From positions 1,890,001 through 1,922,000 of the forward strand of contig FP565575.1 in NCBI GenBank assembly GCA_000091165.1: a DNA stretch of 32,000 nucleotides. The letters are read 5' to 3'. This document shows positions 297-29,350 of the stretch, in pieces. The notes below the pieces were generated by a model. The model made no database searches. It saw only the letters and a list, made by a program, of their open reading frames with translations, and was not told where the DNA came from. Source of the stretch: Candidatus Methylomirabilis oxygeniifera (GTDB lineage: Bacteria; Methylomirabilota; Methylomirabilia; Methylomirabilales; Methylomirabilaceae). The translations under genes were made by a program, and so were the position numbers. Position 1 is the stretch's first letter. Each line of letters starts with the position of its first letter.

Positions 297-302
297 CTAT
301 CT

Positions 303-596
303 ATGTTCTTGATAAAACTCCTGCCCGAATTTACCGCATGGCTGGACGGTCTGTCCGATGCGTCGGTGCGCGGGGTGGTCGCGGCGCGCATCAAGCGTCT
401 GGAGCGCGGCTTGATGGGGGACGTGGAGCCGGTCGGCGACGGGGTGTCGGAGTTGCGCATTCATTTCGGTGCGGGCTGGCGCATGTATTTCGTGCAGCGT
501 GACGGTCAGTTGATTGTGTTGCTCGTCGGTGGCTCCAAGCGTACCCAAAAGACTGACATCAAGCGCGCCAAGGCATTGGCGGCGCTCTTGGACTAA
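303..596 (+). CDS. addiction module killer protein (RelE/ParE-superfamily, HigB-like toxin)
   Basis: 97 aa. FTAWLDGL...ARIKRLERG..GDVEPVGDGVSELRIHFGAGWRMYF..RDGQLIVLLVGGSKRTQKTDIKRAK matches the pattern of the putative addiction module killer family. It is immediately followed by the antidote gene. Confidence 0.85.
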   Translation: MFLIKLLPEFTAWLDGLSDASVRGVVAARIKRLERGLMGDVEPVGDGVSELRIHFGAGWRMYFVQRDGQLIVLLVGGSKRTQKTDIKRAKALAALLD

Positions 597-611
597 GTGA
601 AGGAGATGACT

Positions 612-917
612 ATGATCCAACGTATCAAAGTAGCTGACTTACCCGAGTTTGATGCCGCGCCGTATCTCGACAGCGAGGCGGCGATTGCGGCTTACCTGAC
701 GGATATTCTGGAAGCGAACGATTCGGCTTTGCTGGCGTCGGCATTGGGAGACATCGCTCGGGCGCGTGGCATGAGCGAGATTGCCAAGGCATCCGGACTG
801 ACCCGCGAAGCTTTGTACAAGGCGCTCAGACCCAATGCGAAACCGCGCTACGACACCATCGCGAAGGTCTGTGCGGCGCTCGGGGTGCGGCTGGTGGCAC
901 AGGCGATTCATGCGTGA
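612..917 (+). CDS. addiction module antidote protein, HTH type (HigA family antitoxin)
   Basis: The ORF track starts it at GTG 597. ATG 612 is preferred because GAAGGAG at 599-605 lies 6 nt upstream. DAAPYLDSEAAIAAYL...GDIARARGMSEIAKASGLTREALYKALRPNAKPRYDTIAKVCAALGVRL is the typical antidote HTH pattern. Confidence 0.85.
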   Translation: MIQRIKVADLPEFDAAPYLDSEAAIAAYLTDILEANDSALLASALGDIARARGMSEIAKASGLTREALYKALRPNAKPRYDTIAKVCAALGVRLVAQAIHA

Positions 918-1211
918 GCCTCCAAAGTTGACCGCCCGAGGAGATAGGCGCCACAATGGTGCCTAATGAACGGCTCAACCAGGCAACTACCCGACCGCAA
1001 TGAATGGCTGAATGCCTCCACGCTTTCCCTCGAAAAGGCAGTCCAGACGCCTGCTTCGCCACGAGAAGCCACGAAAAGCGCTTGACCGCCTTCCAGATTT
1101 GGCGTAATAGATCGTTAGTTACCTTTCTTTCCCTTGGAGAGGTGTGTCTGCCGCTTGTCTGCCAGGCAGGGAGGATAGCATGGGGCAATCTCACTAAAAC
1201 GGGGGCAATTC

Positions 1212-1309
1212 ATTGTCCTGCCCTTCCAGGTCATCGAGCAGGTGGACGAGCTGCACGCCGAAAGGCCAGAGGACACGTCACCACAAGGATTGCTTTTTGA
1301 CGAACGCGG
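1212..1309 (+). pseudogene. short fragment of a DNA methyltransferase N-terminus (paralogous copy of 3075-3172)
   Basis: It reads IVLPFQVIEQVDELHAERPEDTSPQGLLFDERG with no start codon and no continuation. By hand alignment it is about 91 percent identical (9 mismatches in 98 nt) to 3075-3172. Confidence 0.6.
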
Positions 1310-1393
1310 GCTATCGTCTGCGTCGCTCAGTTCAAGTCGTAAGACGGCTGCACACGGCTTGCCTGATGAACAGTACCTACACTACCGGGGTCG

Positions 1394-1633
1394 ATGAGGC
1401 TTGAGGTTGTTGGTCCAATTGCAGACGTTGAGGTTATCGCGTCAGGACCAGCAATTCGGGCGCGCTCCTACCTTCGCAAGGCGTATGGTCGAGGTCGATG
1501 GCGGAAGTGAAAGGGTGTTGCCACCGTTCGCCTGCCGAACGGCGCTTTGCGGAGGGTAGAGTTGCGTTGGTATGAAGCGCATGATATTGGTAGGAGAGAC
1601 CTGAGAATCAAACGCTACTTGGAAGACGTATGA
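1394..1633 (+). pseudogene. small conserved-hypothetical gene interrupted by an in-frame TGA (1508-1510)
   Basis: ATG 1394 ... GRGRWRK-TGA-KGVATVRLPNGALRRVELRWYEAHDIGRRDLRIKRYLEDV-TGA. The stop overlaps the next ATG (ATGA at 1630-1633). The part after the internal TGA has no in-frame ATG or GTG start of its own. From memory, the KGVA.VRLP.G...E.HWYEAH.IG pattern belongs to a widespread small-protein family. Confidence 0.45.
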
Positions 1634-1866
1634 AAACGACGATGAAGCCGTTTGCGCTGTGTATCGATAACACAGACTATCAGGCATCACTCATCCTTGG
1701 CAAGGTCTATCATATTCTTCCGGATCCAAAAGCTGCCAAAGATGATCTTGTGCGCATCGTCGATGAGAGCGGCGAAGACTACCTCTATCACAAGGGGCTT
1801 TTTGTCTTTGTGGACTTTCCGAAAGTAGTGAAGAAGAAAATCCTCGCCCTTGCGACTGCTGCCTAA
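1630..1866 (+). CDS. small conserved hypothetical protein (partner of 1394-1633)
   Basis: 78 aa with an ATGA overlap onto the upstream ORF. The RIVDESGEDYLYHKGLF motif is recognised from a recurrent small-protein family of unknown function. Its stop codon lies inside a GCCTAAC motif at 1861-1867. Confidence 0.6.
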   Translation: MKTTMKPFALCIDNTDYQASLILGKVYHILPDPKAAKDDLVRIVDESGEDYLYHKGLFVFVDFPKVVKKKILALATAA

Positions 1867-2195
1867 CTCAAATTCGGACACTATGAATACGGTCAAACGG
1901 CTTGACCGCCCACGGCTGCCATGCGAGAGTCTCTTGGGATTCCGGCTGGTGGTCGCCGGCTGATGTTCCAAGCCGGTCTCGATAACAAGGCTGCCGGCGC
2001 TGCCGCTTTGCCGCCAAAACCCCCGCAGCCACGCAGCAAAAGGCGCCCAGGGGAGATGGGACCCCTGCCAGATTAGGCGGCGAGCCCGTCGGCCCTAAAC
2101 AGATTAGGCCGGTCTGCCTAATTGTAGTTAAGCGGTCAGGACCCAGTCATTGGCGAGTGTCCGCATCCAGGCTATTGAGGCGACGAAGGGTTGAG

Positions 2196-2777
2196 ATGGT
2201 ACGGTTCCTCTGGTCGGAAAGAACCTGGGCCATCGTGAGCGCCGTGTCTGGCATGGTCGCGGCGCTCGCGGCGACGTTCACCGTCTATCAGGCCATGACA
2301 ACTACGCGTGAGGACAGGGAAGCGAAGCGACCCTACTTCACGATCGAGGCGCCTGGCATCAAACCCCTGCCGAAGAGTCCACCGTACCGAATTCAAATCA
2401 CAATGCGGAACGTCGGTGTCCATCCTGCAACCAGGTTGAACGGAAAGATCCTGTTCGTTGATGCGAACCTCGCTACGAAGCCGGCGTACGCTTTCGACTT
2501 TTCGGTAGCAAACGATGTACCTTCGGGATCTCCGACCCCGTGGTACAACGACTCCCTTATACTTCCAAATGACGTGCCGCCGATGTACGTCGTGCTAGCC
2601 GCTTCGTATAGCGACACCATTATCGGCAAGGACTACTCGCAGGCTTTTTATATGCGGTGGGACGGCGTCAAGAATGGTCAGACACAGCCAGATTTCGTTC
2701 ATGTGTCGGCTTCCGAGCGGTCTCGCATCGAACAAGCGCTGCGAACTGAGATCGAAGGCGTCATTCAACGGAAGTGA
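2196..2777 (+). CDS. hypothetical membrane-anchored protein (single N-terminal TM helix)
   Basis: The ORF track gives 2157-2777 (GTG). ATG 2196 gives MVRFLWSERTWAIVSAVSGMVAALAATFTVYQAM. No family was recognised. It is flanked by GTTAAGC at 2127-2133 and by attC-like element B. Confidence 0.5.
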   Translation: MVRFLWSERTWAIVSAVSGMVAALAATFTVYQAMTTTREDREAKRPYFTIEAPGIKPLPKSPPYRIQITMRNVGVHPATRLNGKILFVDANLATKPAYAFDFSVANDVPSGSPTPWYNDSLILPNDVPPMYVVLAASYSDTIIGKDYSQAFYMRWDGVKNGQTQPDFVHVSASERSRIEQALRTEIEGVIQRK

Positions 2778-2866
2778 GGCCGCCTAACCTCGCGCTGGGG
2801 CCGTCGCGCCGGCCCCGTGCGTGCTCGCGTGCCACCGTGGCGCGCGGCTGAGCGCCGGCGTTATAT
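2778..2866 (+). repeat. attC-like imperfect palindromic element B
   Basis: GGCCGCCTAAC at 2778-2788 starts 1 nt after the stop codon at 2775-2777. GCGCTGGGGCC at 2792-2802 can pair with GGCTGAGCGC at 2846-2855. A spacer precedes GTTATAT at 2860-2866. There is an internal GC-rich palindrome GCCACCGTGGC. The architecture matches element A. Confidence 0.4.
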
Positions 2867-2924
2867 TTTCCATCGCGCCTCTCGGTCTGATACTGGGTAG
2901 GACATCGAGAAAAAGAGAAGTTTC

Positions 2925-3218
2925 ATGCCACGACTGACTGAACAAGAACAACAAGAGATCATCCGCTATATCGAGGCGGACAAGCCGCTGCCGGATAAGT
3001 TTCGCTTCCTGCTCCTCGAGGAGAAGCGGGAGGTGGAGCTAGTTTGGAACGGCAAGAGCAGCGAGGTCAGCAGTATCGTTCTGCCCTTTCAGGTGATCGA
3101 ACAGGTGGACGAGCCGCGCGCCGAAAGACCAGAGGACACGTCACCACAAGGATTGCTTTTTGACGAGCGCGGCCGCCAGCTTAAGGGCTGGACGAACAAA
3201 CTGGTTCCTCATCGCTGA
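2925..3218 (+). pseudogene. N-terminal fragment (about 95 codons) of a site-specific DNA methyltransferase (R-M Mod-type)
   Basis: MPRLTEQEQQEIIRYIEADKPLPDKFRFLL.E.KREVELVWNGK...VLPFQVIEQVDEPR...LFDERGRQLKGWTNKL is the characteristic N-terminus of large adenine methylases. The ORF then diverges and stops, and no catalytic domain is present. Confidence 0.65.
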
Positions 3219-3477
3219 AGAACGAGCCGCAAAGGCCAAGGTCGTTATCAGCACGCGCTTCAACAGCCAGCAGCAGGTGTTTCTCGATTTTGTGCTGTCA
3301 CACTACGTCAGCGTCGGGGTGGAAGAACTTGATCAGGACAAGCTCACTCCCCTATTGCGGCTCAAGTATCACAACTCCATCGCCGACGCCGTGGCCGATC
3401 TGGGCAGGCCGGATGAGATCGGGCGTGTCTTCACAGGCTTCCAGAAGTACCTATATCAGCAGCAGGCGGCCGCGTGA
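3160..3477 (+). pseudogene. C-terminal fragment of a type I restriction enzyme R subunit (EcoEI R C-terminal-like domain)
   Basis: QQQVFLDFVLSHYVSVGVEELDQDKLTPLLRLKYHNSIADAVADLGRPDEIGRVFTGFQKYLYQ matches the HsdR C-terminal domain pattern. The helicase and nuclease parts are absent. Recognisable similarity begins near 3215, in a different frame from the methylase fragment. Confidence 0.55.
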
Positions 3478-3612
3478 CACGCAAGAACCAAGAGTTCGTC
3501 GAGGGAGTGCCTGGCATGTTGGAGGTATTTAGCGGTGACGCTCGACGATCGCATCTGCTACTCTCTAACACCAGAGAATGGTTGTCGGCGCGACAGTTCG
3601 GTGCTACTACTT

Positions 3613-3759
3613 ATTAACAGTCTCATAATTGAATCGACACCCATTGAGAAAATCTCCCCTCGCCCCTCTTTTCCAAAGAGGGGTCAATCCTTCCTTTGAC
3701 AAAGGGAGGCGAGGAGGGATTGTTCGATCATGTGAAACTATTATTATGAGACGGTTAAT
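3613..3759. repeat. inverted-repeat-flanked composite hairpin element
   Basis: ATTAACAGTCTCATAAT at 3613-3629 and ATTATGAGACGGTTAAT at 3743-3759 are reverse complements with 1 mismatch. They enclose 3649-3722, where outer arms AATCTCCCCTCGCC/GGCGAGGAGGGATT flank two 9-bp hairpins: CCCCTCTTT-tcc-AAAGAGGGG at 3663-3683 and CCTTCCTTT-gac-AAAGGGAGG at 3689-3709. Confidence 0.75.
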
Positions 3760-3777
3760 ATTTTCACGCCGGCAATA

Positions 3778-3827
3778 AATCTCCCCTACCCCATTTGCCG
3801 AAGGGGGGCAGCGAAGCGGGGGGATTT
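3778..3827. repeat. C-tract/G-tract hairpin repeat unit
   Basis: AAATCTCCCC...GGGGGGATTT outer arms around CCCCATTTGCCGAAGGGGGG. It belongs to the same family as 3649-3722, 12982-13028, 13606-13771 and 18530-18658. Confidence 0.7.
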
Positions 3828-3844
3828 GAAGAGGTGGTAAAGGT

Positions 3845-4264
3845 ATGAACCTGGCTGAAACAACCGCGACTATCATCCACACCGTGCTGGCGCACTACCC
3901 CGCGACGCAGGCCATCTACCTGTTCGGCTCGTACGGCGCAGGTGACGCTTGGCCGGATAGCGATGCGGACATTGCCCTGCTCTTCACCCCGGAACAGGCC
4001 AAAGCAGAACACAACCTGCCCCTGAGTCAATGCCGCTTTGATCTGGAAGATGCCCTGTCCAAAGAGGTGGATCTGCTCAATGCCCGGCAGGTGTCCACCG
4101 TCTTTCAAAAGGAAATTATTGGCGGTGTCCGTATCTATTGCGCCGATCCGTATGCGGCGGATGAATTTGAAATGCTGGTCATCTCCTATTACCAAAAGCT
4201 GAACGAAGAGCGGCGGGAAATCCTGGACGCCTTTGACAAAACCGGGAGGGCGTACGCCGTATGA
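3845..4264 (+). CDS. mntA: nucleotidyltransferase-domain antitoxin (MNT, MntA-like)
   Basis: 139 aa with the LFGSYGAGDAWPDSDADIALLF minimal nucleotidyltransferase motif. An ATGA overlap links it to the downstream HEPN gene. Confidence 0.85.
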   Translation: MNLAETTATIIHTVLAHYPATQAIYLFGSYGAGDAWPDSDADIALLFTPEQAKAEHNLPLSQCRFDLEDALSKEVDLLNARQVSTVFQKEIIGGVRIYCADPYAADEFEMLVISYYQKLNEERREILDAFDKTGRAYAV

Positions 4265-4677
4265 ACGATATCGTCATCAATAAAATTCAAAGTATTCAGC
4301 GGTGTATCGAGCGCGCGCGGCAAGAATACCGGTCAGACCCTGACGGGTTCGCAGTCAATCACACCTTGCAAGACGCGGCGGTGTTGAATGTGTTGCGGGC
4401 GTGCGAACAGGCGATTGACCTGGCCAATCATGTGATTCACACGTACAAGATGGGCATTCCCACCGCCAGCACAGAAAGTTTCGATCTGCTGCTGGCAAAG
4501 CATGTCATTGACGTGGCCCTGTCGGAGAAACTTAAACAGATGGTGCATTTCCGCAACATCGTCATTCACCAGTACCAGCGCATGGACATAGAGATTGTCA
4601 CATCGGTGATCGTTTCCGGCCTGGATGATCTGGTTCAATTCGGCGACCGCGTCAAGGAGTTTATCGGTGAGCGTTAG
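4261..4677 (+). CDS. hepT: HEPN/DUF86 toxin (HepT-like)
   Basis: 138 aa. RNIVIHQY fits the Rx4HxY HEPN motif. It is translationally coupled to mntA. Confidence 0.85.
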   Translation: MNDIVINKIQSIQRCIERARQEYRSDPDGFAVNHTLQDAAVLNVLRACEQAIDLANHVIHTYKMGIPTASTESFDLLLAKHVIDVALSEKLKQMVHFRNIVIHQYQRMDIEIVTSVIVSGLDDLVQFGDRVKEFIGER

Positions 4678-4712
4678 GCATTGCAGCCGTACAATCCGAG
4701 GAGTGTCCCGAC

Positions 4713-13772: not shown

Positions 13773-13849
13773 TGGTGGCGGTGACTGGACTCGAACCAGT
13801 GACGCCGCGGATATGAGCCGCGTGCTCTGACCGACTGAGCTACACCGCC
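13773..13849 (-). tRNA. tRNA-Met (anticodon CAT; an elongator or lysidine-modified Ile2 identity cannot be separated by eye)
   Basis: The reverse complement folds as a cloverleaf: GGCGGTG-TA-GCTC-AGTCGGTC-AGAGC-A-CGCGG-CTCATAT-CCGCG-GCGTC-ACTGG-TTCGAGT-CCAGT-CACCGCC-A-CCA. All four stems are fully paired and the CCA is encoded. Confidence 0.9.
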
Positions 13850-13964
13850 AAAAACATTCGCGGACCTTAATGAGTATGTATGGTATTGCGCAACGCTTGT
13901 CAAGCGGAAGGAGCCCCGGCTGGACGGTACAGCTCGTCCTGCTGGAGCCTTGACGAGATCAGCC

Positions 13965-14273
13965 TCAGAGCAGCTTGGTCATCACCTTGGCATCCCAGTC
14001 TTGCGCGAGATCACTCAGCTCCTGGGCCAGCCGTCGCCCTTCTTCATCCGTCGTCCAGAGCTTCTCCCATGCATCGAGATCCGCATAGGCTGAGAACTCC
14101 CAGAGTGCCATATACTGAGGGCGATGCCCCACGTAGAGGTCACGGGAAAAAAGACCGACGAGTTTGAACTGCGGGAGAGCCTTTGCGAAGTGGTCGGCAA
14201 ACCGCTGATACGCTTCGGCTACCTGCGTCCGCTTAACCCCTGGCTTTTGATCGAACTCGATCATATAGAACAT
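13965..14273 (-). CDS. hypothetical protein (102 aa)
   Basis: The start is trimmed from 14366 to ATG 14273 (MFYMIEFDQK...) because GGAGGG lies 7 nt upstream. No family was recognised. Confidence 0.5.
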   Translation of the reverse strand: MFYMIEFDQKPGVKRTQVAEAYQRFADHFAKALPQFKLVGLFSRDLYVGHRPQYMALWEFSAYADLDAWEKLWTTDEEGRRLAQELSDLAQDWDAKVMTKLL

Positions 14274-14470
14274 CGCCTGTCCCTCCACGTGGCGTCCCTG
14301 GTCACGATGTCGCATATCTCTCTGCCGAACATGACCGAACTGTTTTCGTGCAGCGTAGCTTGCCATGCACTCGCCAAGATGTCAAACATTTTTCCTGACC
14401 CACCGAGAGCGCTCAGCCGTTTCAGGCTCTCAATCGGCCAGAGCATCAGAGAAAGGAGTGATGTAGCGAT

Positions 14471-15991
14471 TCAGATATTGGTCAGAACCGACTCGCCGGC
14501 GGCGCCGGTCAGCGCCTTCTCGGAGGCCTCGCTGAGGGCCTTGACATGGCGGCGATCCGTGGTGAAGACCCGGTAACGGGCCACCTTGGGCGGGATATCG
14601 CGAAATAGCTCCATCAGGGGTCTCGGCGACACTTCGCCCGTAGCCGGATTGTACATGAAGATCTGCTTGCTTCCTTCGGCCAGCGGGTTGATGGGACGGG
14701 GATCGAGCGCGGCCATGTCCACTTTGAACTCGATTCCATGCAGGCGCTTGGCCAGATGGCGGCGAATCGCCTCTTCCAGATGTGTGGCAGTCTGAAACTG
14801 AACCATCCGCTGCGATTCCTCGATAGTCGAGACAAAGTCATAGGCCATCTTCCACTTGACCTTCCGACCCGAGATCTTCCCCCACTCCGCTCCCAGCGCC
14901 CGCTCATGCGGATCTTTTGAGCCGGCCCACTCGCGGACCCGCTCGAGAAGGAACCAATCGGTCAGCTCCAGATATCGGTCCAGCGCTTTGTACGGATGAT
15001 ACGGGGCAATCCGCGCCATCGTCTCCTTGAAGATCTCCTGGACGTGCAGGTCGATGGCCCGGGTCGTCCGATGATGGTAGACGTTCACGTAAAGAGCGAT
15101 CTTCGCGTTCAGGAACCGCATCAGGGCCGACTCTCCCGCTTTGTGCAAGGTCAGCCCCTGCGGCGTGAAAAACGTGTACAGCAGCAGCCGCTCGATGTCC
15201 ACCATATCAAGCGAGAAGCCGGTCATATAGGCGTCTCGCTGCACGTAATCAAGGTTGTCCACGGTATAGATCCCGGAAAAAAGCGGGCGGAGCGCCAACA
15301 GCCACTCCGGAAAGCCGCCCGCAGAACCCGTTCTCAGCCCTGTCGAAGCCCGCCCTGAGCTCAGTCGAGTGGCGCCGGTCTCCGGCTTCTTGATTAAAAA
15401 GGCGATCTGTCCGGGATCAAGTCGTTCATTCGACCGAAACGACCCGCTTGGGCTTCGTCGGATCGCTTTGATGATCCCCCCCAGCTTCTTCGTGATGATG
15501 GCCATTCCAAGGATCTCATGGTTCAGCCGCTCGCCGCCGACGTGAAACTGCTGCAGGAAGTGATCGTCGAAAAAATGCCCGAAGGGACCGTGCCCCACGT
15601 CATGAAGCAACCCGGCAAGCCTCAGTAGCTCTTCAATGAACGACTCCGACGGCAGCGATTCTCCGAATGTCTCCTTCAGACTGGGATAGAGGTGTCGAGC
15701 GAATTTGCCGGCCATATGCATGGTCCCCAGGACATGCTGGAACCGACTGTGTTCGCCGGAAGGATAAACCCACCAGGTACTCTGGAGTTGGTGAATGCGG
15801 CGCAACCTTTGGACCCAGGGGCTATCAATGATCTCCTTCTCGGTCCGTTCCAACCGGTCACCCATCGGAACGGTGAAGAGGATATAGCGGTGGATCGGGT
15901 CTGCCAGCAATGCCAGCCCTTCGTAGGGTGACGTCAGCGGCGTGCCGCCACTCCCGATCGCCTGCAACGTGGTAATACGAGATGCAGTCAT
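14471..15991 (-). CDS. HD-domain phosphohydrolase (COG1078 / SAMHD1-like dNTPase superfamily)
   Basis: 506 aa. RFQHVLGTMHMAGKFARHL ... LAGLLHDVGHGPFGHFFD ... DNLDYVQRDAYMTG. It starts 11 nt after the helicase stop codon. Confidence 0.85.
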   Translation of the reverse strand: MTASRITTLQAIGSGGTPLTSPYEGLALLADPIHRYILFTVPMGDRLERTEKEIIDSPWVQRLRRIHQLQSTWWVYPSGEHSRFQHVLGTMHMAGKFARHLYPSLKETFGESLPSESFIEELLRLAGLLHDVGHGPFGHFFDDHFLQQFHVGGERLNHEILGMAIITKKLGGIIKAIRRSPSGSFRSNERLDPGQIAFLIKKPETGATRLSSGRASTGLRTGSAGGFPEWLLALRPLFSGIYTVDNLDYVQRDAYMTGFSLDMVDIERLLLYTFFTPQGLTLHKAGESALMRFLNAKIALYVNVYHHRTTRAIDLHVQEIFKETMARIAPYHPYKALDRYLELTDWFLLERVREWAGSKDPHERALGAEWGKISGRKVKWKMAYDFVSTIEESQRMVQFQTATHLEEAIRRHLAKRLHGIEFKVDMAALDPRPINPLAEGSKQIFMYNPATGEVSPRPLMELFRDIPPKVARYRVFTTDRRHVKALSEASEKALTGAAGESVLTNI

Positions 15992-16002
15992 CGATCACCC
16001 CT

Positions 16003-18483
16003 CTAGATCAATGCGGATTCCAGAACGATGCCACGATCCAGCATCTCAGTTGCCCGTGAGAGCGTTCGCGTCAGATCGGCGGGCAACTCCGGGCTCTCTT
16101 CGAGTTGCCGACACAGGTCGATCAGCCGGCGGAAGGCCCGGATGAGGTCGCCCTCATGCCCCCCGAAACTCTGTTCCACCAGCGCCAGCCAGTCGTCCTC
16201 GCCGGATACCCACCGATGAGTGGCCGCCAGATAGGTCGTGTGCATCGAAACCGGAAGCTCAACCTGGTAGGATCGCTGGACCTTGTCCACCTCCTGGCTC
16301 AGCTCTTCCAGTGTCTTTACGCGCCGGCGAAGGTGCGCCTGATCGCGGAGGAACAGCTTGGCCGCCGCCTGCTCGGTTGCTCGCGGTTCCTCAACCAGGC
16401 ATGAGAGAAGGCCCGCCAGCTCTTCAGGTACAAGCCCCTGCAGAAGTCCGGAGAAGGCCACCCGAGCCACCAACAGTTCGTTGTCGTGGCGCAGTGACGC
16501 AATCAGGCGGCCTTCCGCACCCAACCGTCCATCATCGACGTAGCCGAAGTACTGGAGAATTCCCACAACCCGCAGGAACTGTTCCCAGTAGGAATTCTGA
16601 AGTTGCTGTTGCGTCTGATGGTGACGCTCCAACATCTGCCCCAGGCGTCGCGACTGTTTGAGTTGTCGTTCCCGGAGCGACCGTTCCGCGCAGCGGTGGC
16701 AAGGCATCTGGGAGAGGGCAAGGGCCATCGCGTCCAGTTTGGACCTGCTCTCCTCGTAGTTACCCCAGAAAAAGGTCGGAGAACCTGCAGATCGTCGACC
16801 CCGGCCCCGGCCACCTCCACGACCAGCCCGCGCCGTCGCCACCCGCAGCGTCCCGATCCGCTGCCGCTCCTGCTCAATCGCAGCGCGCCGCTCACGATAC
16901 TCAATCAGCGTGCTGACCGGGCAACAGGGTGATGTCATGCCCTCGGCGTCGGCCAGTCTACGGATTAACTCCTCTTGTTCCCTCCGGCTGACCTCGATCT
17001 TTCGACGATTCTGGAACTGGCCGAAGCTCTTCTCTATGGTCTTCCGGATCGCCTCGGGCTCGCGTTGCATTTCAATCAGCAACGCCGCGCTGCTGTAGCC
17101 GATCCGGAATCGGCTGTCGATCGGTTCCGGATCGCCTCGTACCAGACGAACGGCGTCTTCGACCCCCTCCGCAGAATCGAGCGCCATGAGGCAGGTCCCT
17201 TCAGGATCGATCCCCCGTCGCCCGGCCCGCCCGGCCATCTGGAACAGCTCTCCGACGGTGAGCCCCCGGAACCCGAGATCGCTTCGCTTGCGAAGTCCAC
17301 CGATCACGACGCTCTTAGCCGGCATATGAATCCCCAGGCTCATCGTTTCGGTCGCAAAGACCACCTGCACCAGTCCCCGCTCAAACAGGAGTTCGGTGAG
17401 CCGCTTCAATGCCGGCAGGACGCCGGCGTGGTGCAGCCCCGCACCTCGACGGAGCCCGCTCAGAATCAGTCGATTCAGATCGCTCTCAAGACTGATGCTC
17501 GGGTAGTCGAGAAGCGTCTGTTGGATCGTCTCCTCAACCTCCTCACCCCTGGCGGGATCCAGGAGCGGCTCGCCGCGCTCCAGGAGACGAGCGAGAGCTC
17601 GCTCGCATCCAGATCGACTGAAGATAAAGTAGATGGCCGGCAGCCAACGGCGCGCCCGCAATGCGGCAATCGCGATACTCTCGTCGAGCGCGCGACGGCG
17701 GAAGGGGCGGTGCCGACCTTCCCTACGTCGTTCCCATCGGCCCGCCTCGCGCCCCTCCGATACGCTTCGGTCAGAAAAGAACGCGTGCAGGATCCGCCGG
17801 ACCGAAGCCGGTTCCGGCGGCCAGAGCTGCCCCTCCCTGTCGCAGAGCAGGTACTGCAGCGGCACCGGCCTGACCGGATGGTGGATAGGCCGGATCGGGC
17901 GATGTGTCTGGCCGATCCACTCGGCAATCTCCCTGATGTTGCTGACAGTGGCCGAAAGAGCAACAAGCTGGACCTCAGGAGGGCAGTTGATGATGATCTC
18001 TTCCCATACGGTCCCCCGCCCGACATTCCCCATGTAGTGGCATTCGTCCAGCACCACATAGCGAAGCCCCTCACATTCCCCCCCGTAAAACTTGTTTCGG
18101 AGGATCTCTGTAGTCATGACGACGAGAGGCGCGCGAGGGTTGACCTTCACGTCGCCGGTGAGAATGCCGACCGTCTCTTCACCCCACTGACGGGTGAAAT
18201 CGGCATATTTCTGGTTGCTCAAGGCCTTCAGAGGGGTCGTGTAGGCGATACGATGCTGATGGGCCAAGGCTCGAAAGATCGCGAATTCAGCGATAAGGGT
18301 CTTGCCGGCGCCGGTCGGCGCGGACACGATCACGGAACTGCCCTCCGCAATCAGACCGATAGCCTCTTCCTGGAACGGGTCGAAGGGGAACGGATACCGG
18401 TCGCGAAACGCGTCGATCAGCGCCTGCGCGTCCCGCGGCATGGACGATGAATCGATCTCGATGGGCCTGTCTCCTTTCGGCAT
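16003..18483 (-). CDS. Ski2-like DExH-box helicase (HelY-type) with a DSHCT-like C-terminal domain
   Basis: APTGAGKT (motif I), VVLDECHY (DExH), LSATV, and helicase C motifs (HHAG..P, QMAGRAGRRG). The C-terminal ...GRLIASLRHDNELLVARVAFSGLLQGLVPEELAGLLSCLVEEPR is DSHCT-like. The start is set at ATG 18483, because the track's extra 32 codons up to 18579 lie in a repeat element. Confidence 0.9.
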   Translation of the reverse strand: MPKGDRPIEIDSSSMPRDAQALIDAFRDRYPFPFDPFQEEAIGLIAEGSSVIVSAPTGAGKTLIAEFAIFRALAHQHRIAYTTPLKALSNQKYADFTRQWGEETVGILTGDVKVNPRAPLVVMTTEILRNKFYGGECEGLRYVVLDECHYMGNVGRGTVWEEIIINCPPEVQLVALSATVSNIREIAEWIGQTHRPIRPIHHPVRPVPLQYLLCDREGQLWPPEPASVRRILHAFFSDRSVSEGREAGRWERRREGRHRPFRRRALDESIAIAALRARRWLPAIYFIFSRSGCERALARLLERGEPLLDPARGEEVEETIQQTLLDYPSISLESDLNRLILSGLRRGAGLHHAGVLPALKRLTELLFERGLVQVVFATETMSLGIHMPAKSVVIGGLRKRSDLGFRGLTVGELFQMAGRAGRRGIDPEGTCLMALDSAEGVEDAVRLVRGDPEPIDSRFRIGYSSAALLIEMQREPEAIRKTIEKSFGQFQNRRKIEVSRREQEELIRRLADAEGMTSPCCPVSTLIEYRERRAAIEQERQRIGTLRVATARAGRGGGRGRGRRSAGSPTFFWGNYEESRSKLDAMALALSQMPCHRCAERSLRERQLKQSRRLGQMLERHHQTQQQLQNSYWEQFLRVVGILQYFGYVDDGRLGAEGRLIASLRHDNELLVARVAFSGLLQGLVPEELAGLLSCLVEEPRATEQAAAKLFLRDQAHLRRRVKTLEELSQEVDKVQRSYQVELPVSMHTTYLAATHRWVSGEDDWLALVEQSFGGHEGDLIRAFRRLIDLCRQLEESPELPADLTRTLSRATEMLDRGIVLESALI

Positions 18484-24671: not shown

Positions 24672-24949
24672 GCAACGACCTGCGCCATACCCCTACGCAC
24701 GTTACCATCTCGACCACTGGAGCTTTCGCTTCCGGTAGGGTCCTCGGCGGACTAAGCGAAGCTGCGAGCGGCCCAATACGCTGCTGCCGCCTAATCGGTG
24801 CGTGAATCCGGTGCCAGGCGCTTGTCACCAACGGTGGCACGTGGTATGCCTCAGTCGCAATCATACGCCGAAGTCAACTGCTGGTTAATGCTCGTAAGCT
24901 GGCTCCCTTAGCGGGTCCGCACTATTGGCGGAGAGGGACGAAGGAACCT

Positions 24950-25159
24950 ATGAAGTTTCTCGTAGTCTTAGAAGTTGGGGAGGATGGCTACATCGTGGCG
25001 GAGTGCCCCGCCTTGCCGGGTTGCGTCTCTCAGGGGCGAACCGAGGAGGAAGCTCTGGCGAACATCCGGGAGGCGATCCAGGGAATTGTGGCAGTTCGAC
25101 AGAAACACGGCCTTCCGATCCCCGAGGAGCGCGTGGTCGAGATCGCGGTCCCGGCCTAG
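24950..25159 (+). CDS. hicB: HicB family antitoxin (UPF0150 fold only, no DNA-binding tail)
   Basis: 69 aa. YIVAECPALPGCVSQGRTEEEALANIREAI is the HicB N-terminal domain pattern. GAAGGAA ribosome-binding site. Confidence 0.85.
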   Translation: MKFLVVLEVGEDGYIVAECPALPGCVSQGRTEEEALANIREAIQGIVAVRQKHGLPIPEERVVEIAVPA

Positions 25160-25335
25160 TGGCGAAGCTCCCGGTCATTTCAGGTCGGGAAGCAGGGAAG
25201 GCGTTCGCCAAGCTCAACTTTGTGTACGATCACCACCGAGGCTCTCACATGATCTACTATCACCCATCTGGCCGTCACCTCTCCATCCCGGACCACAACG
25301 AACTAGACAGAGGAACCCTCCGCAAGCTCATTTGA
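25159..25335 (+). CDS. hicA: HicA toxin, truncated by a premature opal codon (probable pseudogene or attenuated toxin)
   Basis: The GTG start overlaps the hicB stop (TAGTG). VAKLPVISGREAGKAFAKLNFVYDHHRGSHMIYYHPSGRHLSIPDHNELDRGTLRKLI is followed by TGA at 25333-25335. The same frame continues YAGITVEEFLALLQDS-TAA, which is the normal HicA C-terminal helix. Confidence 0.7.
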   Translation: MAKLPVISGREAGKAFAKLNFVYDHHRGSHMIYYHPSGRHLSIPDHNELDRGTLRKLI

Positions 25336-25386
25336 TACGCTGGGATCACGGTGGAAGAATTCCTCGCGCTTCTTCAAGATTCCTAA

Positions 25387-25488
25387 TCCCCTACCTTCTC
25401 TCGGATCGAGCATAACGCGAGCGATGCCACCATCGAAACGCTGCTCAAGGTGGCACGAGTCCTCGAGCCTCTCTCGACTTCGAGGTGA
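25387..25488 (+). pseudogene. possible remnant of an XRE-family HTH protein C-terminus
   Basis: FSRIEHNASDATIETLLKVARVLE resembles the recognition-helix end of HTH_3 domains. There is no start codon and no N-terminal helices. Confidence 0.3.
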
Positions 25489-25551
25489 AAGCGGACAGTA
25501 GGCTATAAACCAGACAGTTACGGCCTCTACCTCGACTGAATCCAGATCATA

Positions 25552-25764
25552 CCACCGCTGCTCTCAGAGGGTCTCCCATTCCTCGGGACTCAAGTGGGCT
25601 TGGCGCAGGATGGATCGTAGGGTGGGAACGGCAATGTCGCGGGAGTGGATCGGCACGGTGACCTTTCGGTTATCCGGGTGGACATAACGGGCATGGCTCC
25701 CGGTCTGCCTGCGCAGTTGAAAGCCTGCTGCTTCTAGTTTGCGGATAACTTCCCTTGGCCGAAG
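25552..25764. repeat. 213-bp duplicated segment, copy 1 (hicA body plus 12 nt of 3' flank)
   Basis: Identical to 27880-28092 except for 3 T/C transitions, by hand alignment. Confidence 0.9.
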
Positions 25765-25779
25765 CGGGCTAAGCGGCAT
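25564..25779 (-). CDS. hicA: HicA family toxin
   Basis: 71 aa. REVIRKLEAAGFQLRRQTGSHARYVHPDNRKVTVPIHSRDIAVPTLRSILRQAHLSPEEW. It overlaps the upstream hicB by 11 nt. Confidence 0.85.
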   Translation of the reverse strand: MPLSPLRPREVIRKLEAAGFQLRRQTGSHARYVHPDNRKVTVPIHSRDIAVPTLRSILRQAHLSPEEWETL

Positions 25780-26026
25780 GGGCGGGAAGCTTCACATGAA
25801 CGTAGAACCCCTCTTCCCCTTCTTCGCCTGGCGGGACAGGCTCACCCTCTTCCTGAAGGCACTCCACGTGAAAGGCGACCATTGTCTTGATATTCGTCAG
25901 GGCCTCTTGCACGTCCGCTCCCTGGTCGGCAATGCCAAGGGCTGGCACCTCCGCCACCACACTGCCCGTCTCCGGATCCTTTGTCACCAGGACGCGATAT
26001 TGCAGGATTGCTGCTACACTCATCAT
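25769..26026 (-). CDS. hicB: HicB family antitoxin
   Basis: The start is trimmed to ATG 26026 (MMSVAAILQYRVLVTKDPETGSVVAEVPALGIADQGADVQEALTNIKTMVAFHVECLQEEGEPVP). The track's longer ORF runs into the integrase remnant. Confidence 0.8.
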   Translation of the reverse strand: MMSVAAILQYRVLVTKDPETGSVVAEVPALGIADQGADVQEALTNIKTMVAFHVECLQEEGEPVPPGEEGEEGFYVHVKLPAHAA

Positions 26027-26100
26027 CCCCCCCCTCTCACTCCTCACCGATTCAAGTAAAGAGTCTACCAGCGTCGCTTCCGGGTGGCAACCACCTTCCG

Positions 26101-26295
26101 TCAACCGCTCCACCGCGCCCGCAGGTGGGTCGCCTTCTTGATGGCCAGCTTGCGCTTCTGGTGGAAGTCTCGAGCGACTGACTTCGCCGTCCCGATCCGT
26201 TCCCGGTGCCGATGCCCGTAGGAACACACCTACCGCACCCACCAGAGCCCGTCACGTTGAAACAGCCCTCGATCTACACCGCCTTTGCGTGCCAT
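26101..26295 (-). pseudogene. N-terminal remnant of a tyrosine recombinase/phage-type integrase with an in-frame TAG
   Basis: ATG 26295: MARKGGVDRGLFQRDGLWWVR-TAG(26230-26232)-VCSYGHRHRERIGTAKSVARDFHQKRKLAIKK.... The G.WW.RY...G.R.RE..G..K..A....KRK..I pattern is typical of integrase arm/N-terminal domains. The catalytic domain is absent. Confidence 0.55.
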
Positions 26296-26301
26296 CTTTG
26301 C

Positions 26302-26712
26302 TCACCTGCGGGGGCGGGGATCGGTCGCGGCTGGGTAGCAATCAAAAGAAACAGTCATCGCGAATCCATCGTCTCCACTGACAGAATAGAGAGAACTCCC
26401 CTCCCTGTATTCGACCACCATCGGGGGAGGGTTTTTACCTGGATGTTTCCTCGTGAGATCTTCCTCGTCTTCTCTCGCAAATTCCACGGCAATCCGGGCG
26501 AAGCCCTTAGCCAATTTCTTGCATTCGGCTAAATTGGTTGTCGAGCTTTGGATTTCCCATGAGTCCGCCTCGTATGGACGATCATGAAGATACAACTCCG
26601 TCTTTTTCCACACGACCCATCCATTCCCTTCTTCTTTCGCCCACAACCTTCCTCCAAAGAAGCCGACAGCAACGGCAAGCGCAATACCCCAGACGAGAGC
26701 GAGTCGCTTCAT
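26302..26712 (-). CDS. hypothetical secreted protein
   Basis: 136 aa with a signal-like N-terminus MKRLALVWGIALAVAVGFFGGRLWA. No family was recognised. Confidence 0.5.
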   Translation of the reverse strand: MKRLALVWGIALAVAVGFFGGRLWAKEEGNGWVVWKKTELYLHDRPYEADSWEIQSSTTNLAECKKLAKGFARIAVEFAREDEEDLTRKHPGKNPPPMVVEYREGSSLYSVSGDDGFAMTVSFDCYPAATDPRPRR

Positions 26713-26767
26713 CGTATTAGCCCCCCACGCTGCATACTCGTGTTTCTCTCTGGCTAACCCAGGTTTC

Positions 26768-27025
26768 TTAGCGGGCTAAGTGTTCTTTCACCTGTATCCG
26801 CAATAGGGTGGTATAGCTTAAGCCCTTCGCCTCTGCCATCGCCTCGATCTTGGTAATGTCCCCGGGATCAAGGCGAATGTTGATCGCCCGCTTCGGTCGC
26901 CTGACAAACCGGATGCCAGCTTCGGCCGTCTCCTGGGCATGCTCCGCGAAGCTGTGAGTGTCCCAGTACGCCGCCGCCTCTCGATCTGTCGGGAGTGATG
27001 GAATTCGTTTCACCTGTTTCTTCAT
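26768..27025 (-). CDS. BrnA/CopG-type antitoxin family protein
   Basis: 85 aa. EAAAYWDTHSFAEH ... KRAINIRLDPGDITKIEAMAEAKGLSYTTLLRIQVKEHL matches the CopG-antitoxin/BrnA pattern. It starts 15 nt after the relE stop codon. Confidence 0.7.
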   Translation of the reverse strand: MKKQVKRIPSLPTDREAAAYWDTHSFAEHAQETAEAGIRFVRRPKRAINIRLDPGDITKIEAMAEAKGLSYTTLLRIQVKEHLAR

Positions 27026-27040
27026 TTGCCACGCCTCGCG

Positions 27041-27295
27041 CTATAATCCTCGGTAGACCTCCCGCCGGTGTTTGATTCTCAGGACCTCCACCGTACGCGC
27101 CTTGTCGTCGATATCGTGAAGCACCCTGATATCCCCAACCCGTATCCGCCATGCCCCCGTGCTGAGCTTAACGCAGCCCTTAGGCCGAAGGGTCCCGGTC
27201 AGGGATGCGAGAGCCTCGCGCACCCTCACCCAGGTATCACCTATGAGCCTGTCCAGGTCTTTCTGCGCTCTAGGACCGAGTAGCAGCCGGTACAC
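27041..27295 (-). CDS. RelE/ParE family toxin
   Basis: 84 aa (GTG start). AQKDLDRL ... RVREALASL ... RPKGCVKLSTGAWRIRVGDIRVLHDIDDKARTVEVLRIKHRREVY is the ParE_toxin pattern. Confidence 0.8.
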   Translation of the reverse strand: MYRLLLGPRAQKDLDRLIGDTWVRVREALASLTGTLRPKGCVKLSTGAWRIRVGDIRVLHDIDDKARTVEVLRIKHRREVYRGL

Positions 27296-27548
27296 GCTTT
27301 TTCCGCTTGGTTAGGTAGGCGTCCAGGCTGATCCGCTCTCCAGGGGCCTGACGCGCCTCGACGGCGTCCATCGCGTCCTGTAAGTCTTCCAACTCCTCCA
27401 GCAGGCGGTTGTAGGCGTCAAGGCTCAGCAGGACCGCTGCCCCTTTGCCGTGCTGAGTGAGAATGGCCGGGCCTTTCTCCAGTGCCGCCAAGACCTCCGC
27501 TTGGCGTTTCCTCAATTCAGAGATGGGAATCACCTCGTTGATCCGCAT
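27270..27548 (-). CDS. Phd/YefM family antitoxin
   Basis: The start is trimmed to ATG 27548 (AAGGAG upstream). MRINEVIPISELRKRQAEVLAALEKGPAILTQHGKGAAVLLSLDAYNRLLEELEDLQD. It overlaps the relE start. Confidence 0.8.
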   Translation of the reverse strand: MRINEVIPISELRKRQAEVLAALEKGPAILTQHGKGAAVLLSLDAYNRLLEELEDLQDAMDAVEARQAPGERISLDAYLTKRKKRVPAATRS

Positions 27549-27563
27549 ACACAGCTCTCCTTG

Positions 27564-27624
27564 TGGAAGCAATACATGGTCTTCAAATGCTACCAAATAT
27601 ACAGCGAGGGTATTTGAGCGTCAA
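27564..27624 (-). promoter_or_regulatory. promoter and operator-like inverted repeat of the phd-relE operon
   Basis: On the minus strand: TTGACG (27619-27624), a 17-nt spacer, and TATATT (27596-27601). The inverted repeat TGGAAGCA (27564-27571) / TGCTACCA (27588-27595), 7 of 8 complementary, lies between the -10 and the ribosome-binding site. Confidence 0.5.
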
Positions 27625-27735
27625 GCGATGTCACAAAGACAATTCAAAGGGAAGCTAAGTAAAACTCATGGCAGGGGAGGGGAAGCAATCGCCAAAGCTA
27701 ACCCCAAAGCCCACAGTTTTACGGAGATGTGAGAC

Positions 27736-27770
27736 TAGTGGCCGAGACGTGCGGGGTCGAATCCACCTAC
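27736..27770 (-). other. degenerate partial copy of the tRNA-Sec 3' end (att-like direct repeat)
   Basis: tagtggccgagacgtgcggggtcgaatccacctac aligns with 29253-29288 (tggtggcggaggcgtgtgggggtcgaacccaccaac). There are 29 matches, 6 mismatches and 1 gap, in the same orientation as the tRNA. Confidence 0.5.
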
Positions 27771-27879
27771 GTCATTTCCTCAAGTAATTCCACTCGGTTC
27801 AGAGCCAGTGGATTCCCGGTCACGGTCTGGGTCACGGTTTCACGCCCGGCTTCCACCGTTCGCCCGTCACTCACGTGTT

Positions 27880-28092
27880 CCACCGCTGCTCTCAGAGGGT
27901 CTCCCATTCCTCGGGACTCAAGTGGGCTTGGCGCAGGATGGATCGTAGGGTGGGAACGGCAATGTCGCGGGAGTGGATCGGCACGGTGACCTTTCGGTTA
28001 TCCGGGTGGACATAACGGGCATGGCTCCCGGTCTGCCTGCGCAGTCGAAAGCCTGCTGCTTCTAGTCTGCGGATAACCTCCCTTGGCCGAAG
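27880..28092. repeat. 213-bp duplicated segment, copy 2
   Basis: See 25552-25764. The three differences are at 28046 (C versus T), 28067 (C versus T) and 28078 (C versus T). Confidence 0.9.
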
Positions 28093-28257
28093 GTTGAGCA
28101 CCACCTTCCGGCCAATTCTTCGCGCTGGCAACCCGACCCGTGCCCGCAACCGCCGATTTTCCAGGCTCCTGGGGCTTGCCTTAACCTCCTCCCGTTGAAC
28201 CGTTTCGTCCACCGAAATGATTTTTGTCACGAGACCCCCCTTTCTTGTCCGTACCAT
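27892..28257 (-). CDS. HicA-domain protein with a novel ~55-aa N-terminal extension (no adjacent hicB)
   Basis: 121 aa. The C-terminal 66 aa are the duplicated HicA (2 substitutions, K->R and Q->R). The N-terminus MVRTRKGGLVTKIISVDETVQREEVKASPRSLENRRLRARVGLPARRIGRKVVLN was not recognised. An alternative GTG start (VTKIIS...) follows AAAGGGGGG. Confidence 0.55.
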   Translation of the reverse strand: MVRTRKGGLVTKIISVDETVQREEVKASPRSLENRRLRARVGLPARRIGRKVVLNLRPREVIRRLEAAGFRLRRQTGSHARYVHPDNRKVTVPIHSRDIAVPTLRSILRQAHLSPEEWETL

Positions 28258-28320
28258 CTTTCATCCCTGTTACCGCTCATAGTAGAGTACACACTTTACC
28301 TATTCAAGCAAATTACATTA

Positions 28321-28329
28321 TGGTAGAAT
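28321..28329 (+). promoter_or_regulatory. possible extended -10 promoter element for 28373-29035
   Basis: TGGTAGAAT (TGnTAGAAT) lies in the AT-richer divergent intergenic region. No good -35 was found. Confidence 0.3.
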
Positions 28330-28372
28330 AGTGTTATTTCCGGGAACGTCCACATAGCGAAAGGAGGTAAAT

Positions 28373-29035
28373 ATGGTGACCAGGGCGAAGCGCGTTTCAG
28401 GGATTTCGACGAAAGACGCCATCATGCTAGAGAAGTACCAGCGAGTCCTCCAGACGACACTGCAATGGTCAGTGATGGCGCCGCGAGAGGATCGCTTGCG
28501 ATGGATACTGGAATTCGCGGCAGAGGATATTGACGCCCTCACGCCCGACGAACGGTTCGAGCGAGCAGTACGATTGAGGTGTTTCATGTGGCCGGATTCT
28601 TCATTGTGGTGCTCGAACCCTTCATCCCCGCCTAGAACTCTCCTGATGCCCGATGCCGTACTGCACCAGGTGCACGCGGAGATTAATCAAGGGCTCCGGG
28701 TGGTTCTTGGTGAACAGCGTAACGAAGAGTGGTATGTCCCTGGCCCGGTGCGGATAGCGTTCTATCGGGCCTCGCCACGCTTCAAGAAAGGACCGAAGGC
28801 AGAAACAGCGCCTGGACGTACTCGATTTGCGTTTCGGTGGGACTGGGGAGACGATGCGGGCGCAATTCTCGCCGGGATCATTCACCTCATCCACGATGCG
28901 GGATCGCGCTTGCGAGGTTGCAAGGAGTGTGGGAAGGCGTTCATCGCTGTGAAGCGGCAACTCTATTGCGGGGAGGACTGCTCCCAGCGCAAGCGGGATC
29001 GTGATAAACGGTATCGATCACAAGCTAGGGAGTAG
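28373..29035 (+). CDS. hypothetical protein with a C-terminal CGNR-like zinc finger (distant ABATE/CGNR-type architecture)
   Basis: 220 aa with a strong ribosome-binding site (AAAGGAGG, 5 nt before the ATG). The C-terminus LRGCKECGKAFIAVKRQLYCGEDCSQRKRDRDKRYR shows the C-x2-C ... C-x3-C plus basic-tail pattern reminiscent of CGNR zinc fingers. The N-terminal ~180 aa were not recognised. Confidence 0.6.
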   Translation: MVTRAKRVSGISTKDAIMLEKYQRVLQTTLQWSVMAPREDRLRWILEFAAEDIDALTPDERFERAVRLRCFMWPDSSLWCSNPSSPPRTLLMPDAVLHQVHAEINQGLRVVLGEQRNEEWYVPGPVRIAFYRASPRFKKGPKAETAPGRTRFAFRWDWGDDAGAILAGIIHLIHDAGSRLRGCKECGKAFIAVKRQLYCGEDCSQRKRDRDKRYRSQARE

Positions 29036-29255
29036 GCGTTCTGAAGGACTCAGCGTCTCGGCTTCCGAAAGTTCTGAAGCCTGTACGTACCGTGGGGGCG
29101 GCACTCCCCATCGTTCCATGACGGGAAGCCCTTAAGCCCCCACCCCCTGTCATTCATCGTTTCGGTCGATCAAGCTGACCGTGATTTCAGTCACGGTTCG
29201 TGGTCGAAAATGGTCGTTTTCCATCGTACTCTAGCATGGATAGTTAGCAGGATGG

Positions 29256-29350
29256 TGGCGGAGGCGTGTGGGGGTCGAACCCACCAACCCGGTATTAGCG
29301 GGTGCGCTGGTTTTGAAGACCAGGAGGGCCACCGGGCCCATTCCGCCTCC
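29256..29350 (-). tRNA. selC: tRNA-Sec (anticodon TCA), selC
   Basis: The 95-nt reverse complement is GGAGGCGGAATGGGCCCGGTGGCCCTCCTGGTCTTCAAAACCAGCGCACCCGCTAATACCGGGTTGGTGGGTTCGACCCCCACACGCCTCCGCCA. It has a long acceptor stem, a 5-6 bp D-stem with the 4-nt loop CGGT, the anticodon loop CTTCAAA, a long variable arm (ACCCG..CGGGT), the T-arm GTGGG-TTCGACC-CCCAC and discriminator G. The length and layout match E. coli selC as I recall it. Confidence 0.9.

Follow-up and report, generated by a model that had tools for sequence, protein, structure and literature searches.

A degenerate islet of toxin-antitoxin genes and recombinase relics at the 3′ end of the tRNA-Sec gene of Candidatus Methylomirabilis oxyfera

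The DNA considered here is a stretch of 32,000 nucleotides (nt) from Candidatus Methylomirabilis oxygeniifera (GenBank assembly GCA_000091165.1, contig FP565575.1, positions 1,890,001 to 1,922,000 of the forward strand), referred to throughout as the window, and the subject is its selenocysteine tRNA gene, selC, together with the 4.58 kb that separate the 3′ end of this gene from the stop codon (24671) of a gene for a DUF3047 protein. The same locus is present without a mismatch over 5.6 kb in two assemblies of Candidatus Methylomirabilis oxyfera, the name used below. The tRNA gene, which a first-pass annotation made from the sequence alone had recognised on the minus strand, is called at the same place by ARAGORN and by the Rfam model RF01852 (67.4 bits against a gathering score of 47; E = 1.2e-12), and its 3′ 45 nt are near-invariant across relatives. 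Scanning of the window proteins with Pfam, and of the orphans also with NCBIfam, PADLOC and PHROG, bore out the further claim that toxin-antitoxin (TA) modules, remnants and orphans alone lie between selC and the next core genes: the variable DNA (24716-29255, 4.54 kb) holds nothing but TA modules, pseudogene relics and two orphans (Table 1), and genes for DUF3047, MlaE and the Mla ABC ATPase flank it on the distal side (precomputed Pfam matches). On the other side of selC lie a gene for a HIT protein and hisIE-hisF-hisA. The start of the islet, initially placed at 24921, moves to about 24715 in the alignment of relatives, and its length from 4.3 to 4.58 kb. We argue that this interval is probably a degenerate, immobile composite islet that was built at an integration hotspot formed by the 3′-terminal ~35-47 nt of selC.

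The evidence that carries this reading begins with a second copy of the end of the tRNA gene inside the interval. A Smith-Waterman query made up of the 3′-terminal 45 nt of selC and 15 nt of flanking DNA was compared with both strands of the whole window, and its best match lay at 27738-27770 (score 21), in the orientation of the tRNA. The full copy (27737-27770) has 28 matches, 5 mismatches and 1 gap, and it represents the 3′-terminal ~33 nt of selC, CCA included, plus 1 nt. A score of 21 was attained in 1 of 300 dinucleotide shuffles of the whole window and, for the 5 kb downstream on the same strand, in 1 of 2000 (null mean 12.0), and the similarity that the first-pass annotation had reported at 27736-27770 thus survives comparison with a shuffled background. 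That the 3′ part of selC alone has been copied fits an att site, and a permissive Rfam scan of the interval found no other tRNA-like pieces. The copy is most likely a decayed attR left by the newest insertion and marks where the tRNA gene formerly ended.

Clearer duplications of this kind are found in relatives, which were collected by a HisIE scan of genome contigs and a DUF3047 protein scan of metagenome contigs and are cited here by locus labels (L001 and so on). About a dozen Methylomirabilis-like genomes have the same neighbourhood, and selC is found in ten of them. Copies of the selC end lie 5.9 kb from the tRNA gene in L087 (11539-11585, 45/47 nt), 5.4 kb from it in L002 (14909-14951, 43 nt, the last 22 of which, with 4 nt of flank, are identical) and 0.9 kb from it in L085 (4263-4302, 35/40 nt). 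The L002 repeat begins 40 nt past the stop codon of a tyrosine integrase gene, and beyond this attR there is further islet DNA with an S8 peptidase gene and ParE′-CopG′ relics. Together with the copy that bounds the inner segment of the window, these duplications back the original proposal of an integrase-mediated insertion into the selC 3′ end with duplication of the att site. The window fragment and the L002 attR have two differences from selC in common (TAGGTGGA versus TTGGTGGG), as expected of the element-derived side, and this hints that the two may stem from related attP sequences. The att-bounded segment of L087 (11585-17502) contains, by eye, IS3-family (OrfA/OrfB) transposase genes, an IstB-like relic, a gene for an NAD-dependent epimerase and one for a universal stress protein; a search of it with the L002 integrase as query found no integrase.

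A weaker third copy of the tRNA end had been proposed at 24921-24945, and this candidate was rejected. Its scores, 8 against selC and 10 against the fragment, lie below the shuffle mean of 12, and all it has in common with selC is the 8-mer TGGCGGAG, which occurs five times in the window, once only 70 nt further on within hicB. In the closest relative, L083, TGACCGTGGAG stands where the window has this motif. The segment is the region upstream of hicB1, and the GGAG in it could be the ribosome-binding site of that gene. Because the third repeat fails, the tidy model of two tandem insertions is unsupported: the inner segment stands as an att-bounded unit, and the outer unit does not.

Across the relatives the interval is hypervariable between fixed breakpoints. 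The distance from the DUF3047 stop codon to the selC 3′ end is about 0.56 kb in L004, 1.2 kb in L085, 1.8 kb in L100, 2.0 kb in L097, 4.6 kb in the window, 4.7 kb in L081, 6.8 kb in L087, 8.3 kb in L002, 8.9 kb in L099 and more than 10 kb in L084. The cargo, as read by eye from translations, differs as well: L001 has other TA-like pairs, L083 encodes DUF488 and a fragment of a P-type ATPase, L081 a HEPN protein and a restriction-modification-like methylase, L099 has two copies of ParE besides XRE/ImmA-like genes, and L002 has the S8 peptidase. On the tRNA side, strong homology to the window in the two relatives that match best there ends at 29251 (L001, 98% over the last 118 nt) or 29241 (L002), which is ~5-15 nt from the tRNA 3′ end, and in more distant relatives the alignment runs across selC itself only. 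On the outer side it ends at ~24715, about 43 nt past the DUF3047 stop codon, in L081, L083, L084, L099 and L002, with blastn end-points between 24714 and 24736. Relatives do not, therefore, carry one constant set of genes between selC and the DUF3047-mla block; the interval varies from genome to genome and breaks at the tRNA end, which leaves the proposed insertion unrefuted.

Some further observations concern individual relatives. L001 (DATMXF010000178.1) is labelled as a Patescibacteria metagenome-assembled genome (MAG), but its his-HIT-selC region matches that of M. oxyfera at ~93% of nucleotides, and mis-binning of the contig is probable. L004, with the shortest spacer, has at 3344-3616 an open reading frame (ORF) of 90 amino acids (aa) whose product has a hydrophobic segment at its N-terminus and a tail rich in Q, E and R. 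In the Methylomirabilis MAGs L005 and L006, whose HisIE is 82% identical, the sequence downstream of the HIT gene yielded neither a selC nor any nucleotide-level match to the DUF3047-mla block of the window; the his-HIT-selC linkage may not be universal in the genus.

Table 1. Features of the selC to DUF3047 interval (window coordinates) and the evidence for each
Feature	Position	Strand	Evidence or remark
DUF3047 3′ flank	24672-24715		kept in relatives; ends at outer boundary of variable DNA
CopG antitoxin pseudogene relic	24737-24800	-	two in-frame stops; repeat family D2
hicB1	24950-25159	+	UPF0150 31.9 bits, HicB_lk 28.6 bits
hicA1	25159-25335 (tail to 25386)	+	HicA 50.5 bits; in-frame TGA stop
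XRE-type HTH C-terminal relic	25393-25503	+	blastn to L085, tblastn; translation read by eye
hicA2	25564-25779	-	HicA PF07927 75.6 bits
hicB2	25769-26029	-	HicB_lk 17.6 bits, cut-off 27
Tyrosine integrase N-terminal relic (int′)	26101-26295	-	similarity to L002 integrase
orf136 (orphan, N-terminal hydrophobic segment)	26302-26712	-	no family match
CopG/BrnA-type antitoxin, orphan	26768-27025	-	PF12441 36.6 bits
parE	27041-27295	-	PF05016 40.3 bits
phd	27270-27548/27596	-	PF02604 53.5 bits; TIGR01552
selC 3′-end copy	27737-27770	-	Smith-Waterman, shuffles
Two GTCACGGT copies	27819-27838	+	motif count; candidate arm-type sites
hicA3	27892-28104 (ORF to 28257)	-	PF07927 72.7 bits
Excisionase-like HTH_17 relic (xis′)	28093-28257	-	tblastn to L002
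orf220 (orphan)	28373-29035	+	no Pfam, NCBIfam or PADLOC match
selC-proximal element block (attL arm)	29170-29238	-	conserved in L002, L003, partly L087
selC (tRNA-Sec, anticodon TCA, CCA encoded)	29256-29350	-	ARAGORN; Rfam RF01852

Remnants of recombination genes are present within the interval. The remnant at 26101-26295, a 64-codon frame with an internal TAG, has 68-69% identity over 49-53 aa to the N-terminus of the L002 integrase (69% over 49 aa, E = 5e-21), which shows that the first-pass annotation was correct in calling an integrase remnant there. The L002 protein (13820-14869) has a SAM-like domain and a PF00589 match of 66.7 bits, and its gene contains an in-frame stop and a change of frame; N-terminal relics of the integrase also occur in L082 and L004 (in the latter with E = 1e-6 in a 566-nt search). 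The second remnant, xis′, is 41-45% identical (tblastn, E = 4e-7) to a 66-aa protein encoded at L002 10650-10847, which in turn matches PF12728 HTH_17 (28.6 bits, cut-off 27) and PHROG excisionase families. With no direct Pfam match of its own, xis′ belongs to HTH_17 transitively, through its 45% identity to the L002 protein. It abuts hicA3 in frame, such that it forms a non-HicA N-terminal extension of the third HicA, and these matches mark it as a putative truncated excisionase-like gene. By its sequence, then, what the window holds is a remnant and not a functional element.

At one end, the inner 1.5 kb (27771-29255) adjoins selC, which would be the integration target and the intact attL side, and at the other the selC 3′-end copy. 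The block of 65-70 nt nearest to the tRNA gene (29170-29238) recurs in L002 (80%, E = 2e-5), in L003 (72%, E = 1e-7) and in part in L087, and it was not found in L001, L004, L081, L085, L099, L097 or L100. Because it lies inside att-bounded DNA in L002 and L087 and is absent from these seven relatives, it is element DNA and not native tRNA flank. Within it lie a copy of the motif GTCACGGT (29190-29197) and its inverted partner TCACGGT (29178-29184), together 59-78 nt away from the end of selC, and two more copies of GTCACGGT, 12 nt apart, lie 49-68 nt inside the tRNA fragment; the window contains four copies in all, against 0.89 expected, three of them near the ends of the inner segment. A motif pair with the same 12-nt spacing, ACCGGCAC twice, is found near selC in L002 (9613-9632) and L087 (17372-17391). 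The GTCACGGT/ACCGGCAC repeats (also ACCGTGAC/ACCGGCAC) are candidate arm-type sites for an integrase or excisionase.

The orphan orf220 fills much of this segment. Its product has a C-terminal CxxC...C...C motif and gives only weak, zinc-ribbon-like PHROG matches; five homologues were found among 5.8 billion proteins, and an AlphaFold2 model from these 5 sequences has a pLDDT of 55, unusable for a fold search. On two metagenome contigs, L119 and L120, a homologue again lies divergent to an HTH_17 gene; in L120 these are followed by another HTH_17 gene and by a gene for a 622-aa AAA_25 primase-like protein. An arrangement of orf220, HTH_17 and primase genes looks like a typical mobile-element module, and orf220 is predicted to be mobile-element cargo or a regulator. 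In the window, orf220 and xis′ are separated by an AT-rich divergent intergenic region of 115 nt (28258-28372), and the same divergent layout in L119 and L120 suggests that this could be a regulatory switch region.

The older part of the islet (24716-27736) reads as a patchwork graveyard of earlier elements, not as one clean insertion. The integrase relic sits mid-way in it, and its blocks are shared piecemeal with L082, L085, L099 and L002. Blocks homologous to phd-parE stand directly after selC in L003 and occur also in L099 and L082; the order of a CopG gene, then an unrelated ORF, then the integrase, is seen in L002 too; and in L082 and L110 the DUF3047 flank adjoins a fragment of hicB2. 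The XRE relic has 90% nt identity to L085 5009-5121, about 100 nt from the selC gene of that contig, and in L002 a CopG relic similar to that of the window (17696-17760, 71%) abuts the same DUF3047 flank.

The genes that survive in the islet are for the most part small TA pairs or what is left of them. There are three HicA toxins (PF07927); of their antitoxins HicB1 scores above the Pfam cut-offs and HicB2 below, and the second hicBA pair therefore rests on position and size. The phd and parE genes overlap by 26 nt. The CopG antitoxin is an orphan whose partner toxin is missing, its L002 homologue (69% aa identity) coming after a BrnT toxin, and hicA3 encodes a complete HicA domain with no hicB next to it, its product being annotated with 70 aa at NCBI and 112 aa at ENA. 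Neither Pfam, PHROG, PADLOC nor NCBIfam has a family match for orf136, which also has no homologue in the related loci, and the PADLOC defence models gave a weak HicA-like match only, with none for orf220 or orf136. In hicA1 the in-frame TGA stands where HicA2 has an Arg codon (CGA to TGA) and the HicA tail YAGITVEEFLALLQDS continues to 25386, which would make the gene a nonsense-truncated toxin; selenocysteine as a meaning of this TGA was rejected, given the Arg codon with which it aligns and its position in the non-catalytic tail. The CopG relic at the outer edge (TD, stop, AAAAYWAARSFA, stop) is 71% identical to 26931-26989 within the intact CopG gene.

One repeat stands apart from these paralogies. 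The 213-nt direct repeat D1 (25552-25764 and 27880-28092) is identical at 210 of 213 positions, with all three mismatches within its last 47 nt, and spans most of hicA2 and hicA3, as against the 70-80% by which other islet paralogues are alike; this points to a recent duplication or gene conversion. The public short-read contigs L116-L118 end within it.

A second TA-rich stretch lies elsewhere in the window, at 300-4700, with few long ORFs and a lower GC content (0.52-0.56). Judged from translations only, it pairs a gene for a RelE/HigB-like killer (303-596) with one for an HTH antidote (597-917), and further on one for an MNT nucleotidyltransferase (3845-4264) with that of a HEPN/DUF86 protein (4261-4677).

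How such an islet could have formed is readily envisioned. Small elements with a tyrosine integrase and an HTH_17 excisionase would recombine an attP that contains a copy of the tRNA 3′ end with selC; integration would restore the tRNA and push its former 3′ end downstream, and successive insertions would stack beside the tRNA gene. The newest event would have given rise to 27771-29255, with its attL arm, orf220, xis relic, hicA3 and attR arm, and to the displaced tRNA end at 27737-27770, and 24716-27736 would be what deletions and rearrangements have spared of at least one earlier element. Such deletions would remove the recombination genes, and TA modules would persist preferentially. The features of the locus and the pattern across relatives are observed; the order and number of these events are inferred, as is resistance to deletion as the reason why TA genes are over-represented.

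Several points weigh against this account. Composition, which the first-pass annotation had suggested comparing with the flanks, speaks both ways: the tetranucleotide usage of the islet correlates less well with the remainder of the window (r = 0.77) than that of any other 4.5-kb segment, but its GC content of 0.573 is indistinguishable from that of the flanks and it is not the most deviant stretch by L1 distance. The empty selC-DUF3047 junction that had been looked to as a check was found in none of the sampled relatives; even L004, with the shortest spacer, still has an integrase N-terminal relic (3241-3312), and part of the islet may therefore predate the divergence of the species. At the outer boundary (~24715) no distal repeat of the selC end is detectable. 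Pfam finds no integrase catalytic domain in the window, so that mobility cannot be shown, and there is no intact excisionase in it either. All the relatives are MAGs or metagenome contigs, contig ends cut several of the intervals, and the frameshifts in the relatives' integrases may be assembly errors. The arm-site motif was chosen post hoc. Lastly, the flanks of the window fragment and of the L002 attR resemble each other to a degree that 47 of 5000 shuffles reach when anchored and 229 of 3000 when unanchored, which is only suggestive of orthology and was not used as evidence.

Set against these points are other explanations of the same facts. A single ancient, L002-like insertion into selC in a common ancestor, with internal deletion, duplication and cassette exchange between relatives accounting for the rest, would agree with the order of the attL arm and xis′ and of CopG, ORF and integrase N-terminus, which is that of the single att-bounded element of L002; integrase relics in the window, L082, L004 and L002 suggest age, and the islet does undergo recent duplication or gene conversion, as is evident from the 213-nt repeat. 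This is nevertheless unlikely, since a direct copy of the tRNA 3′ end in mid-islet is what tandem integration predicts and what internal rearrangement leaves unexplained; moreover, L003 has phd-parE directly after selC, where the window has the fragment, and the islet DNA beyond the L002 attR means more than one event in that genome. It is scarcely credible, and already largely refuted, that the fragment is a chance or generic T-arm-like match in an interval that merely evolves fast. A 34-nt copy with 5 mismatches and a gap is short and imperfect, one in 300 window shuffles scores as high, and neither Rfam nor ARAGORN calls anything at its position; yet it is the best match in 32 kb on both strands, it lies downstream in the right orientation and reproduces the exact 3′ terminus with CCA, three relatives have much better copies in the same kind of position, and recombinase relics stand beside it.

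Two further possibilities concern the agent of insertion and its present state. Partial tandem duplication of selC by slippage or unequal crossing-over, followed by the arrival of TA cassettes through their own mobility or by recombination in the flanks, would need no integrase, and none that is functional is present; TA modules are also common elsewhere in the genome (window 300-4700), and the cassettes are shared piecemeal among relatives. Against this very improbable course of events stand the integrase and excisionase relics within the interval, the L002 repeat directly following an integrase gene, the element-side block beside selC in four genomes (window, L002, L003 and L087) and the failure to find integron-like or other cassette repeats. 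An integron or cassette array as such was rejected, there being no attC-like inverted-repeat family between the TA genes and the integrase relic being phage-type-like. As for the present state, continued excision of the whole islet or of its inner 1.5 kb, mobilised in trans by an integrase encoded elsewhere in the genome, is extremely improbable. Satellite-type elements that lack their own integrase are established, and candidate arm motifs lie at both ends of 27771-29255, but 6 of the 34 positions of the attR copy have changed, some of them in the acceptor-stem part, xis is truncated, and two independent M. oxyfera assemblies and several read sets are alike, with no contigs showing an alternative junction.

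The preferred reading, a decayed composite islet at a selC hotspot, has well-known counterparts. In Enterobacteriaceae selC, pheU and pheV are island sites, as exemplified by LEE at selC (PMC6174562). The selC islands of enterobacteria and the M. oxyfera islet are alike in the use of the same tRNA 3′ end, in the direct repeat, in the tyrosine integrase and in variable occupancy, and enterobacterial tRNA islands, too, can be as small as 3.4 kb and may include TA genes. They differ in that the host here is a methanotroph of the NC10 phylum, that the integrase relic is not a P4-type CP4-57 integrase adjoining the tRNA, and that in the best-preserved relative, L002, the integrase lies at the far end and abuts attR. 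In M. oxyfera, moreover, the recombination functions have all been lost, and there is no virulence or metabolic cargo.

Tandem accretion at tRNA att sites is a familiar process, in which the newest element lies beside the intact tRNA gene, the displaced former end is shared as attR/attL, and older units are more decayed; the islet resembles such arrays in these respects and departs from them in having one internal att relic, no outermost repeat and a rearranged older part. TA-rich accessory DNA is equally familiar, and the HicAB, Phd/ParE and BrnT/BrnA cargo conforms to it in Pfam membership, in its small overlapping pairs and in its enrichment in accessory DNA. Unlike typical modules, the M. 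oxyfera genes include orphans (CopG and hicA3), a hicA1 with a premature TGA and a HicB2 below cut-off. We found no account in the literature searched of islands or of selC in Methylomirabilis. The degenerate selC islet of an NC10 bacterium is thus a known kind of element in a new host and calls for no new mechanism; what is of interest at this locus in particular is the rare orf220 module, the L002 integrase beside attR, and the separation of the orphan hicA3 from its only matching antitoxin, which is encoded in the older segment.

The last of these invites a more speculative proposal. Since hicA3 is 99% identical to hicA2, whose partner hicB2 is in the older segment, recombination across the 213-nt repeat would remove hicB2 and keep a hicA, and the orphan toxin would thereby penalise such a deletion. 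That the toxins interlock in this way, and that selC mini-elements with orf220, HTH_17 and primase genes constitute a lineage-specific family in Methylomirabilota, we consider quite unlikely; if true, it would amount to a built-in mechanism that freezes dead mobile DNA beside selC.

For annotation, the gain consists in a set of pseudogene relics (int′, xis′, CopG′, XRE′ and the truncated hicA1) and in a 213-nt repeat at which short-read assemblies break. For the biology of the group, selC would be an integration hotspot outside Proteobacteria as well, in a lineage of NC10 methanotrophs that is known almost only from enrichment cultures and MAGs, and the his operon-HIT-selC...DUF3047-mla arrangement provides a defined locus at which the flux of accessory genes among Methylomirabilis populations can be tracked.

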